From Clostridia bacterium (GTDB lineage: Bacteria; Bacillota; Clostridia; Oscillospirales; CAG-272): 64,000 bases of DNA. Location of the stretch: contig JAFTYG010000056.1 of NCBI GenBank assembly GCA_017461365.1, positions 7,089-71,088 of the forward strand, read 5' to 3'. The position numbers are program-made. Shown piece by piece: positions 6,001 to 9,000 of the stretch (its first letter is position 1; the number at the start of each line of letters is the position of its first letter).

Positions 6001-9000
6001 ACGCCGAGGCGACCTCGGAAAAAATAGCGCTCGGCAGATACTTTGACGGACGCATACAGGTGATGTTCGGAACACATACCCACGTTCCCACAGCCGACGA
6101 GCAGATATTGCCGAGGGGAAGCGGATACATCACCGACCTCGGAATGACGGGCCCGACAAACGGAGTTATCGGAACCGATACGGCGGCTGTCATCGAGAAG
6201 ATGCGCACAAAGATGCCCGTTCGCTTTCGCGTAGCCGACGGAGAGATAGCGGCTATGGGAGCGATCTTTACGCTTGACACCGATACGATGACGGTGACCG
6301 ATGTCAAGAGAATAAGATTTTAGGAGGGAAAAATGAGTATCACTCCGAATAATTATTCAACTGCGGCGCTTGCGTACCTTGGAGACTCTGTAATAGAGCT
6401 GTGTGTCAGAGAGCACCTTGTGCGCGCGGGGCTGTCCTCGTCGGCAAGGCTCAACGCAGAGGCGCTCGAATACGTCAAGGCGTCAAAGCAGGCGGCGGCT
6501 ATGAAGAACATATTACCACTGCTTACGGAGGACGAGGAGGCTGTGTTCAGGCGCGGTAGAAATATGGGACATACCAATACGCCCAAGTCGGCAACGGTGT
6601 CGGAATACAGAGCCGCAACGGGAATGGAGACACTTTTCGGGTATCTTCACCTTTGCGGAAAAAACGAAAGAATAGCCGAGCTTTTCGCTGTTGCATATAA
6701 AACGACCGAAAATAATTAAAAATAATAAAAAATAATTGAAAAAGGAAGTAACTACAAATGAACAATCCTGTTATTAAGATCAACGTAAGAAATTTCGGAA
6801 CGATGACAGCGGAGCTTTATCCCGAGTCGGCTCCCCTTACTGTGGCAAACTTTGTAAAGCTCTGCGAGGCTGAGCACTTCAACGGACTTATATTCCACCG
6901 TGTTATCAAGGGCTTTATGATACAGGGCGGCGGATATACCGAGGATATGGAGGAAAGAGAAGCGGCATCCATTAAGGGTGAGTTCCGCGCGAACGGCTGT
7001 ACGACAAACAGCATAAAGCACACAAGAGGCGTGCTTTCTATGGCGCGTACGTCTATTCCCGACTCGGCATCCTCTCAGTTCTTTGTAATGCATAAGGACG
7101 CTCCCCATCTTGACGGTCAGTATGCCGCTTTCGGTAAGCTCACCGACGGCTTTGACGTGCTCGATGCTATTGCAAGCGTGGCGACAGGCAACTACGGCTG
7201 GTATATGCAGGACGTTCCCGCAGAGCCCGTTGTTATCGAGAACATTGAGGTAGTAAGTAAATAAAATATTTTAACCGCCCTTGAGTAAACTGACGCAAAG
7301 GGCGGTTATTTCTTTTGCTTTTTTGAAAAGTAGAAAATAATTCTACAAATTTTGTCAAACCTCTTGATTATTCTGTCGGAATATGGTATAATCATTATAC
7401 CGAGGATGAGCTCGGTTTTGCAATATGATTATATTGAAGAGGTGCGATTTGTATGATGGATGGTACAAAATGCGGAGGATTTCCCAAGTCTTTTTTCGAT
7501 TTTACGCTATCGGAGATGTATATTATTTATCTCTTTCGGAACGATCCCGAGGTAAGACGCTTGCTCAACTATCTGTTTGAGCTTGGTATTGACGAAAATC
7601 CGCCACAAGAAGAACTTGAGGCGGATGAATAGAAATTTTATAAAATCTATTGACAAATGGGAAAAAAGGATTTATAACGACAGCAGAGAGGCACCGAACA
7701 CCATACTTGGCTGAGCCTGTAACGTAGGCTCAGCGCTTAACAGAAGTCAAGCATCCCCTCACGGGCTTTCGCCAAGGATTATTATACCTACGACCTTGGA
7801 TTTGTCAACCAAAATAAAGATTTTCCTTGCTGTTACGGATTTTATACTTGCTTTACCGACTCTACCTACACAATACTTTCCGCAATAATAAGCAGTTATG
7901 CCTCGGATCGAACATTCATTATCACGTAAGTGATAAAATTAAAAGAAGCACCGACATAGTCAAGCTTTCTTTGCTATGTCGGTGTTTGTATTTTACGCTT
8001 TAATTTTTATTACCACACGGTCGGCACTCCGTCAACGTAGTGCCAATATTTGTATGTGGTATCCGTGGGCTGTGCTTCGCTGTAATAATAGTGGGTGGCA
8101 TTCATTAAATTATAGTTATTACTATCAATTGAAATTTTCTTCAAATCGTCAGCACATCCACCATAATAAACGCCTGTCAAGCTACTGCAATTATCTAACA
8201 CACCATAGCCAATGCTCGTGACGCTGTCTGGTATAGTTATGCTCGTCAAGCTACTGCAATTGCAGAACGCCTCACTTCCAATACTCGTTACACTGTCGGG
8301 AATGGTTATGCTCGTCAAGCTACTGCATTTGTAGAACGCACCGTAGCCAATGCTCGTAACGCTGTCTGGTATAGTTATGCTCGTCAAGCTACTGCAACCG
8401 TAGAACGTACAAGTACCAATGCTCGTGACACTGTCTGGTATAGTTATGCTCGTCAAGCTACTGCAACGTATGAACGCATAAGTGCCAATGCTCGTTACAC
8501 TGTCGGGGATGAGTATATTTGTCAAGCTGCTGCAATCAGCGAACGCATTAAAGCCAATACTTGTTACGCTGTCGGGTATGGTTACACTTGTCAAGCTGCT
8601 GCAATCGGCGAACGCAAAATCGCTAATAATCGTAACACCGTCTTCTATAGTCACGCTCGTCAAGCTTGTGCAATCTCTAAACACCGCCTCGCCAAAGCTT
8701 GTAACGCTATCGGGGATAGTCACGCTCGTTAAGCTACCACATTTTTTGAACGCATAATCGCTAATGCATGTAACGCTGTCGGGGATAGTCACGCTCGTCA
8801 AGCTGTCACAATCGTAGAATGCAGCCTTGCCAATACTCGTAACACTGTCGGGGATAGTTACGCTCGTCAAGCCTGTGCAATCGTAAAACGCATGAGATCC
8901 AATGCTCGTTACGCTGTTAGGTATTGTTACGGATTTTAAATTACTGTATTTTTCAAATCCATTATCAAGTATCTGAGTAACCGCCTTGCCGCAGTATGTC

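Follow-up and report, generated by a model that had tools for sequence, protein, structure and literature searches.

The window, a 64,000-nt stretch of genomic DNA from a Clostridia bacterium, contains an intact type I toxin-antitoxin-like cassette at 26 kb and, near 7.7 kb, a much shorter sequence that an earlier note had taken for a recombined copy without toxin. Is this short copy a decaying locus, or is it an RNA regulator kept to act on the intact copies? We infer, with a probability of about 75%, that 7632-7812 is a non-functional relic of such a cassette.

The relic and its parent cassette family

The intact cassette in the same window served as reference:

25937-26355, plus strand: intact reference cassette with promoter, five-hairpin leader and sequestered Shine-Dalgarno site
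26119-26205, plus strand: its 28-codon ORF
about 26279 to 26190, minus strand: its convergent antisense RNA, overlapping the bidirectional terminator
26334-26352: second hairpin with T-run

Judged by its sequence, the family to which this cassette belongs is type I toxin-antitoxin-like, combining a predicted membrane peptide of the TxpA/Hol_Tox type (27-29 residues) with a convergent antisense RNA. Two of the seven G000 paralogs matched the Pfam family Hol_Tox (PF16935) above the gathering cutoff of 23.3 (28.2 and 24.5 bits) and three further ones scored 15-18 bits, below the cutoff. Neither the 28-residue peptide of the window nor its C16 relative had a Pfam match; both were placed in the family because of the DNA homology of the whole cassettes. 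Eight toxin-bearing paralogs accompany the relic in the genome; one of them, C29, has two in-frame stops. A second copy without toxin, C72/C68, has lost leader, promoter and most of the ORF and fits the category of an orphan antitoxin better than the relic does. The parent family is unannotated, and this repeated cassette of uncultured gut Clostridia does not appear to have been described. No match to it was found in IMG/VR, among the INPHARED phages or among the PLSDB plasmids. The only Rfam match of the window at gathering score was a tRNA (62318-62390); the cassette leader matched no Rfam family, and all sub-threshold matches within 7500-8000 and 25850-26400 were far below the gathering scores. 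A candidate ORF upstream in the full leader was discarded because the C16 copy does not conserve its reading frame.

The features of the relic and its flank are:

7632-7812, minus strand (toxin-side orientation): whole relic, cassette-homologous DNA (two blastn HSPs and profile HMM)
7781-7808, minus strand: toxin-side (leader) promoter TTGACA-16-TATAAT, 12/12 consensus (promoter scan and promoter table)
7699-7773, minus strand: proximal leader fragment (alignments and RNA fold)
7764-7773, minus strand: GGC-GAAA-GCC hairpin of the leader fragment
7735-7752, minus strand: hairpin 2 of the leader fragment
7710-7734, minus strand: hairpin 3 of the leader fragment, stem lengthened to 9 bp
7699-7706, minus strand: hairpin 4, 3' arm only, GTATGGTG
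7697-7699, no strand: deletion junction (HSP ends and sequence)
7681-7697, plus strand: remnant of the antisense (antitoxin-type) RNA at its 5' end, CAGCAGAGAGGCACCGA (sequence and blastn)
7650-7678, plus strand: antisense-type promoter TTGACA-17-TATAAC, 11/12 consensus (sequence and promoter table)
7632-7649, plus strand: A/T-rich block AAATTTTATAAAATCTA upstream of the -35, common to the cassettes, likely an UP-like element (blastn)
7590-7626, minus strand: ATCCGCC-N15-GGCGGAT hairpin, then TTTCGTCA; may weakly terminate the leader-fragment RNA (sequence and RNA fold)
7453-7632, plus strand: orphan 59-codon ORF (ORF59), not cassette-derived, with promoter (7364-7392) and ribosome-binding site of its own

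When 7630-7830 (minus strand) was compared with 25920-26340 (plus strand) by blastn, the relic aligned with 25937-26330 of the intact cassette in two co-linear blocks. The promoter and proximal-leader block contained 91 identities in 118 positions (E 1e-19 pairwise, 8e-16 against the whole 2.38-Mb genome), and the block with start and promoter of the antisense RNA 62 in 78 (E 9e-16 and 5e-12, respectively). A family profile HMM built from six intact G000 cassettes gave E values of 7e-15 and 7e-12 at the relic in a genome-wide nhmmer search, where model positions 2-114 and 325-390 lie back to back. The alignment thus bore out what the earlier note had read by eye, namely that the minus strand resembles the 26-kb leader, that it shares an identical 19-nt hairpin with it (GAGCCTACGTTACAGGCTC; the reverse complement of 7713-7731 equals 26014-26032) and that the leader then jumps to the start and promoter of the antisense RNA, with about 210 nt missing in between; the measured gap is 217 nt (26048-26264).

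A likeness of this kind could be due to chance, to generic promoter or terminator signals or to an assembly artefact. The -35 with the A/T tract preceding it is indeed found at many unrelated promoters (A/T block and -35 together match many promoters across the family), and perfect-consensus promoters are very common in the genome. The homology, however, continues for about 75 nt past the leader promoter, through three hairpins, the identical 19-mer and the transcribed 5' end of the antisense RNA, and the same relic sequence is present in five independent assemblies of the species, so it is not an assembly artefact. This explanation is refuted: the co-linear homology is significant beyond generic promoter hexamers, and the relic belongs by descent to the same cassette family as 25937-26355.

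The deletion junction and the antisense side

Within 7577-7830 there is no toxin-like ORF on either strand, and the family terminator TAACCGCC..GGCGGTTA was not found in 7632-7812. According to the blastn alignment, ORF, Shine-Dalgarno site and anti-Shine-Dalgarno hairpin of the full locus all lie inside the 217-nt gap; the segment without counterpart further includes the distal leader, the shared terminator and nearly the whole antisense RNA. The relic is therefore, as had been proposed, a toxin-less and internally deleted derivative of the cassette family in which both promoter sequences are kept. Its last leader-derived base is 7699 (GTATGGTG) and its first antisense-derived base 7697 (TCGGTGCC...), while the single base 7698 was assigned to neither part. 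A CGGT microhomology suspected at this junction fits approximately only: the exact prediction was GTATGGTGGCGGTGCC and the actual sequence is GTATGGTGTTCGGTGCC.

A single internal deletion of about 217 bp removed toxin ORF, bidirectional terminator and all antisense RNA beyond the first ~13 nt together with the distal leader and the Shine-Dalgarno/anti-Shine-Dalgarno hairpin. Its left endpoint lies just past leader hairpin 4 and its right endpoint within the 5' hairpin of the antisense RNA. An inverted repeat (GGTTGCTTCC / GGAAGCAACC) with short CGGT direct repeats on its flanks is present at the two breakpoint sites of the cassettes, and slipped mispairing across a hairpin is therefore the likely mechanism. 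The relic also shows where the cassette tends to break, at the inverted repeat common to toxin leader and antisense RNA.

What remains on the plus strand is little. Antisense transcription starting at about 7685 leaves about 13 nt of RNA, only the first half of the conserved 5' hairpin. The hairpin's 3' half, the GGUUGCUUCC arm, the linker and the terminator are missing, whereas the intact antisense RNA folds into 5' hairpin plus terminator. The sole mismatch of the antisense-type promoter is a C for T at the final -10 base, and for this reason the promoter scan does not include it. The final T belongs to the pair of bases that matter most in the -10 element. Both promoters had been called near-consensus, and positions and sequences were right, but for the plus promoter the term overstates the likely strength, since the mismatch hits this very base. 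In addition, strain L014 carries C7654T, which changes the -35 to TTGATA; this is the sole SNP within 7265-8010 among the six assemblies.

Comparison of 15 copies placed this substitution in a wider pattern. TTGACA-N16/17-TATAAT was found at the antisense promoter in 12/12 copies with a toxin ORF and a near-consensus toxin-side promoter, whereas the -10 is TATAAC or TACAAT in three copies, the relic, C72/C68 and C45, that lack the toxin or promote it weakly. Fisher's exact test for toxin state versus antisense -10 gave ~0.002, a post hoc value obtained on related copies. The antisense promoter is thus perfect where the toxin can be expressed and degraded where it is absent or weakly promoted, as expected if the antisense RNA is an antitoxin selected only while a toxin exists. 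As no toxin is left to be held in check, the antisense-type promoter of the relic is probably drifting, with TATAAC at the -10 and, in one strain, TTGATA at the -35.

These losses bear directly on the two options considered at the outset. The relic has neither a toxin ORF with ribosome-binding site nor a complete antisense RNA gene, the parts of a functional type I system. An orphan antitoxin would need the terminator and both halves of the 5' hairpin, but the terminator and the hairpin's 3' half are missing from the relic's plus RNA. The option of a decaying locus agrees with the truncated antisense RNA, the absent terminator, TATAAC and the -35 mutation in one strain. An orphan antitoxin/leader pair serving as sponge or cross-regulator finds no backing in ~13 nt of antisense RNA, a -10 T->C exchange and a short form that was seen in none of 72 genus genomes, 400 family genomes and two public collections. 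Decay is also common in the family within this genome, with C29, C72/C68 and solo terminators as further cases, and the toxin has been lost in three independent ways: by internal deletion, by 5' deletion and by nonsense mutations. All that the relic retains are its two promoters, facing each other, and the 5' portions of the two RNAs; no toxin-antitoxin function would be left, and its sequence can be explained without any new function.

The toxin-side promoter, the leader fragment and its possible partners

The toxin-side half is better preserved. Its promoter has a spacer of 16 nt, whereas other near-consensus toxin-side promoters have one of 17 nt. Perfect-consensus promoters occur 206 times in the genome compared with 1.3 expected from composition, and the minus-strand promoter of the relic is therefore probably active. 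It would give rise to a structured non-coding leader fragment of ~185 nt or longer: the minus RNA 7585-7773 folds with -63.5 kcal/mol (z -5.2), and every retained leader hairpin forms, with the extended stem in hairpin 3. The retained leader shows no excess divergence, as its identity to the paralogs is within the range among intact copies. Undiverged leader, folding hairpins and 12/12 promoter fit a recent deletion and continued constraint equally well.

From this promoter the leader fragment would run antisense into the 3' end of ORF59, and a structured fragment transcribed into this ORF is likely. The hairpin at 7590-7626, which sits in the last codons of ORF59, has no homology to the hairpin found downstream of the antisense promoter in the intact copies. 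The prediction of two ~90-nt RNAs has to be abandoned: there is no terminator between the promoters, and longer RNAs sharing a complementary core of ~89 nt (7685-7773) are expected instead.

Could such RNAs act in trans on the intact paralogs C40, C16 and C2? The minus RNA could titrate their antisense RNAs through UCGGUGCCUCUCUGCU as an 'anti-antitoxin' sponge and, additionally or alternatively, the plus RNA could pair with the ~90-nt proximal toxin leaders and repress or destabilise the mRNAs. UCGGUGCCUCUCUGCU is a 16-nt perfect complement of the conserved antisense 5' end in all three, and the plus RNA has a perfect match of 19-23 nt to the leaders at hairpin 3. RNAduplex energies of the plus RNA with the three toxin leaders ranged from -107 to -122 kcal/mol versus -65 +/- 5.5 for shuffles, and those of the minus RNA with the antisense RNAs from -64 to -67 versus -42 to -46 +/- 5 kcal/mol. 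The perfect-consensus minus promoter and the intact hairpins would suit a regulator, and cross-regulation at the RNA level is documented for SprG/SprF paralogs (PMC6393307). This pairing potential is, however, an automatic by-product of paralogy, since all these RNAs share ancestry, and the 16-nt target lies within the stem of the antisense 5' hairpin. In the plus promoter the critical -10 T is gone, and in one strain a -35 base as well, the opposite of what selection for the plus RNA predicts, and an antitoxin sponge would be harmful unless finely balanced. No second such architecture was found in >470 related genomes or two public collections. Retention as a trans-acting regulator is thus unlikely. 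It is highly unlikely that the relic is kept as a useful, toxin-free decoy locus, with a strongly promoted leader fragment that ends in the perfect complement and tunes the free antitoxin RNA across at least three intact paralogous cassettes; if true, the locus would be an RNA sponge born from a dead toxin-antitoxin locus.

Neighbourhood, distribution and related systems

A local role was considered as well, in which the relic regulates ORF59 by transcriptional interference or RNA duplex formation. The geometry would allow it: the ORF59 promoter (7364-7392) and the ORF end at 7632 face the minus promoter at 7808, so that the ORF59 transcript would enter the relic and the relic minus RNA would enter ORF59 antisense. 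Only the weak hairpin 7626-7590 stands in the way, and a plus-strand terminator was not found after ORF59 before about 7950-7990. Yet ORF59 may not be a gene, as it had no homolog in 72 genus genomes or 5.8 billion proteins and no Pfam or PHROG match; the arrangement occurs in one species only, and regulation would be indistinguishable from incidental read-through. We consider exaptation as an ORF59 regulator distinctly unlikely and keep the reading as a non-functional relic.

Near the PPIase gene of 29 other species, neither the cassette nor ORF59 nor the acyl-CoA synthetase was present within 1.5 kb; in the sole other PPIase variant the contig stops at the gene. An intact toxin at this site was looked for in other strains, and the five other assemblies of the species all carry the relic. 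Because the six sampled assemblies differ by only ~5 SNPs in 6 kb, finding the relic in every one of them argues neither for nor against its decay; an apparent strain divergence of 2% was an artefact caused by a repeat indel in an LRR gene. By blastn, the short form was absent from 72 genus and 400 family genomes. The pattern of hairpin 3, N4-34 and antisense 5' end had 0 matches in GTDB representative genomes and only two in JGI metagenomes, both chance hits in unrelated sequence. A 16-base family motif was too unspecific, with at least 115 mostly chance matches in the genome contigs.

The parent cassettes resemble txpA/RatA, bsrG/SR4 and bsrE/SR5 of Bacillus subtilis in the short single-helix peptide with basic C-terminus, a putative toxin, and in the predicted convergent antisense RNA over the 3' end of the toxin mRNA and the terminator. 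'Holin-like toxins' were equated with the TxpA family by Fozo et al. 2010 (PMC2887945). In contrast to these systems, the leader of the cassettes forms four or five hairpins and has a motif in common with the antisense RNA, and the relic lacks toxin ORF, terminator and almost all of the antisense body. Convergent transcripts with a shared bidirectional terminator are also found in par (Fst / RNA I-RNA II) of Enterococcus faecalis pAD1. There, direct repeats at the two 5' ends yield complementary RNAs, whereas the shared 5' motif of the cassettes is an inverted repeat in the DNA and gives both RNAs the same sequence; the cassette peptides match Hol_Tox, and no Fst-family Pfam match appeared in the scan.

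For the relic itself there is another parallel. In 1999, Pedersen and Gerdes reportedly described hok/sok loci on the chromosome of E. coli K-12 that have become inactive. Like the present family, these are multi-copy chromosomal type I systems; deletions, rearrangements or point mutations have inactivated several of them, and promoters and RNA elements are still recognisable in the relics. They differ in toxin family and phylum, in the position of the antisense overlap, which in hok is at the 5' leader and not at the 3' end, and in that the K-12 relics mostly arose by IS insertion, not by a clean internal deletion. Toxin-less type I relics are a familiar outcome of ordinary decay, and the relic alone is of little weight; its modest value is that of indirect evidence on the parent family. 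Several paralogous type I pairs in one genome are likewise known for SprG/SprF of Staphylococcus aureus, where, unlike in the relic, every locus has both genes, each antitoxin neutralises its cognate toxin only and a toxin-less regulator does not occur (PMC6393307).

Solo terminators of the family type were observed at 19833-19895, 7273-7318 and 9441-9491 of the window. The one at 7273-7318 was rejected as a displaced terminator of the relic, since the order leader, antisense part, ORF59, terminator does not fit and its orientation is ambiguous.

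The cassette family and its intact members

The elements discussed here lie at the following positions of the window:

7632-7812, toxin side on the minus strand: the relic, a toxin-less cassette copy
25937-26355, plus strand: intact reference cassette (the 26-kb locus), with a 28-codon toxin ORF and a convergent antisense RNA
7453-7632, plus strand: ORF59, an orphan 59-codon ORF adjoining the relic
8010-9308: gene of a BspA-type LRR lipoprotein
7273-7318, 9441-9491 and 19833-19895: solo terminators of the family type

Intact cassettes comprise a consensus promoter, a leader made of small hairpins, an anti-SD/SD hairpin, an ORF of 27-29 codons with Lys codons at its end, a bidirectional terminator (AAAGAAATAACCGCC-loop-GGCGGTTATTTCTTT) and a convergent consensus promoter for an antisense RNA of ~85 nt; a second hairpin with a T-run is usually found past the antisense promoter. 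With a profile HMM from six intact cassettes of the source genome (G000, a 92-contig MAG), eight toxin-bearing copies were detected there, on contigs C40, C16, C2, C41, C14, C29, C61 and C45, together with the relic and a second toxin-less copy that was assembled twice (C72, C68). Four other genomes of the genus contain more intact copies, in one case as a tandem pair. At locus L005 (relative G024, its contig C29, ~12000-12800), two complete tandem cassettes encode different toxin subtypes and a third, partial copy adjoins them.

Two paralog peptides scored above the gathering score of Pfam Hol_Tox and three more slightly under it; the peptide of the 26-kb locus gave no Hol_Tox score. Since the 'holin-like toxins' correspond to the TxpA family (Fozo et al. 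2010, PMC2887945), the nearest characterised systems are txpA/RatA, bsrG/SR4 and bsrE/SR5 and not Fst/par, which was set aside as the closest system to the 26-kb locus given these matches. Neither the relic nor the 26-kb locus matched any Rfam family, and nothing resembling the cassettes was found in phage, plasmid and IMG/VR collections.

In the toxin mRNA of the intact cassette alternative pairings are possible (26047-26108 and 26195-26209). The anti-SD TTGCCTTCCTCG has a complementary sequence in CGAGGAAGCCAA, the 3' arm of leader hairpin 5, and the leader motif GGCGGTTGCTTCC, of which the antisense RNA bears a near-copy, resembles the right arm of the terminator and is able to pair with the left arm. 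This suggests a putative switch in which the antisense RNA would mimic part of the leader. The conserved 5' end of the antisense RNA (GAGAGGCACCGAUGA, e.g. 26262-26278, minus strand) carries an SD-like GAGAGG and, 5 nt further, an AUG that starts a tiny ORF of 8-11 codons in most copies; AUGA is the loop of the antisense 5' hairpin, which may fully explain this pattern.

Origin of the truncated copy

The sequences of 7650-7808 and 25937-26312 were as described in the earlier note. Blastn of 7630-7830 (minus) against 25920-26340 (plus) yielded two co-linear HSPs, one covering promoter and proximal leader (91/118 identical, E 1e-19) and one covering start and promoter of the antisense RNA (62/78 identical, E 9e-16), so the similarity noticed by eye is significant; against the whole 2.38-Mb assembly the E values were 8e-16 and 5e-12, respectively. 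MAFFT global alignment puts the distal block in the wrong place; blastn resolves the two HSPs. The 19-mer GAGCCTACGTTACAGGCTC is indeed shared without mismatch. The leader-derived part runs to 7699 and the antisense-derived part starts from 7697, with 7698 assigned to neither. Distal leader, SD, ORF and terminator, reckoned earlier at ~210 nt, are missing: the relic has no equivalent of 26048-26264 (217 nt).

In most cassettes the leader continues from hairpin 4 into GGCGGTTGCTTCC, and GGAAGCAACCGTCATCGGTG is located directly downstream of the terminator. These regions form an inverted repeat because the 5' hairpin of the antisense RNA near-copies the leader motif. The deletion comprises precisely the arm-to-arm DNA of this repeat, and CGGT flanks it on both sides. 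Slippage between the CGGT repeats across the inverted-repeat stem would be expected to produce GTATGGTGGCGGTGCC; the actual junction, GTATGGTGTTCGGTGCC, differs by one substitution and one inserted base. The proposed CGGT microhomology is therefore plausible, but the fit is not exact.

Promoters, transcripts and decay of the relic

Both relic promoters had been called near-consensus, which holds for the minus strand (TTGACA-16-TATAAT, 7808-7781, 12/12) but overstates the likely strength of the plus-strand promoter, whose -10 element is TATAAC; the promoter scan for this reason did not list the site. The change affects the last T of the -10 element, one of the two most critical promoter bases. 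G000 contains 206 perfect TTGACA-N16-18-TATAAT promoters versus ~1.3 expected from base composition, so that the minus promoter is very likely active; the spacer is 17 nt in 176 of the 206. Many of these perfect promoters share an A/T-rich block upstream of -35.

The minus strand has kept its promoter and, intact, three hairpins: GGC-GAAA-GCC, hairpin 2 (7 bp) and hairpin 3, here lengthened to 9 bp; the RNA of 7585-7773 (minus) folds with -63.5 kcal/mol (z = -5.2). Of the antisense-type RNA, ~13 nt are left on the plus strand. In intact cassettes this RNA forms a 5' hairpin (GAGG-CACCG / AUGA / CGGU-CUUC) and a terminator hairpin; the relic retains only the 5' half of the former, and the latter is entirely gone. 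As the family terminator is absent for both transcripts, two longer RNAs with a complementary core of ~89 nt are predicted instead of the two ~90-nt RNAs proposed before. The plus RNA would continue as far as a hairpin at ~7950-7990, and the minus RNA would extend into the last ORF59 codons, where a weak hairpin and a short T-run occur (7626-7590).

The reading as a decaying TA locus is supported by the state of the antisense promoters, a strain SNP, other decayed copies and the uniqueness of the relic. In each of the 12 copies (seven in G000, five in relatives) whose toxin ORF is retained and whose toxin-side promoter is near-consensus, the antisense promoter matches the consensus at 12/12 positions. 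In the three copies that lack the toxin or have a poor promoter for it (relic, C72/C68, and C45 with a toxin-side promoter of 9/12), the antisense -10 is TATAAC or TACAAT. Six assemblies of the species show a single SNP across 7265-8010, which changes the antisense -35 to TTGATA in one strain; as strain divergence amounts to only ~5 SNPs in 6 kb, this is anecdotal. The full cassette C29:63862-64272 of G000 has two in-frame stops in its toxin ORF (ATG TAA ... TAG ...) and both promoters still at 12/12, a case of toxin loss by point mutation in the same genome. From the identical copies C72:2298-2619 and C68:9482-9803, leader and toxin-side promoter have disappeared along with most of the ORF; terminator and antisense gene remain, the latter with a ~130-nt insert in the RNA and the -10 TACAAT. 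This copy is closer than the relic to a true orphan antitoxin. The solo terminators (AACCGCC-loop-GGCGGTTATTTCTTT) represent a motif elsewhere largely limited to cassettes, and the one at 19833-19895 is preceded by AAA AAG AAA TAA (Lys-Lys-Lys-stop). The short form of the relic was found in none of 72 genus genomes, 400 family genomes, the GTDB representative genomes or JGI metagenomes, the only two matches in the latter being due to chance. Against decay, the relic leader is no more diverged from the paralogs than intact copies are among themselves, and the minus promoter is perfect; a recent deletion fits these observations as well as constraint.

Alternatively, the relic RNAs might be kept as a sponge or cross-regulator of intact paralogs. 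RNAduplex predicted that both can pair with transcripts of the cassettes C40, C16 and C2, the plus RNA with toxin leaders at -107 to -122 kcal/mol (shuffles -65 +/- 5.5) and the minus RNA with antisense RNAs at -64 to -67 kcal/mol (shuffles ~-44 +/- 5) over a 16-nt perfect core, and SprG/SprF provides a precedent for paralogous type I pairs that regulate one another at the RNA level (PMC6393307). However, paralogy brings such complementarity with it, the plus promoter is in decay and an antitoxin sponge would be hazardous. Retention as an orphan antitoxin that acts as a sponge, suggested earlier, is not supported, and we regard a sponge or cross-regulator role as quite improbable. The locus is a commonplace remnant from a cassette family that is itself of interest.

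Genomic surroundings

The relic sits in species-specific DNA between a PPIase gene and the LRR lipoprotein gene, and searches of 72 genus genomes and 5.8 billion proteins found no homolog of ORF59. A 2.2-kb segment of lower GC (7273-9490), containing ORF59, the relic and the LRR gene, has direct copies of the family-like terminator with identical stems at both ends. One strain (locus L014) is without one 69-bp repeat unit of the LRR gene (8519-8587), its protein having 409 versus 432 residues; repeat number thus varies within the species. Window 7901-7994, in which a terminator-like hairpin lies (CACCGACATAG..CTATGTCGGTG), shares 78% identity with C83:11005-11098 of G000, which comes after a second copy of a 20-nt sequence resembling a tRNA/tmRNA 3' end (GATTCCCCTCGGATCCACCA); that arrangement resembles what an integrative element would leave behind at its attachment site. 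The C72/C68 relic, too, has a similar hairpin beside it.
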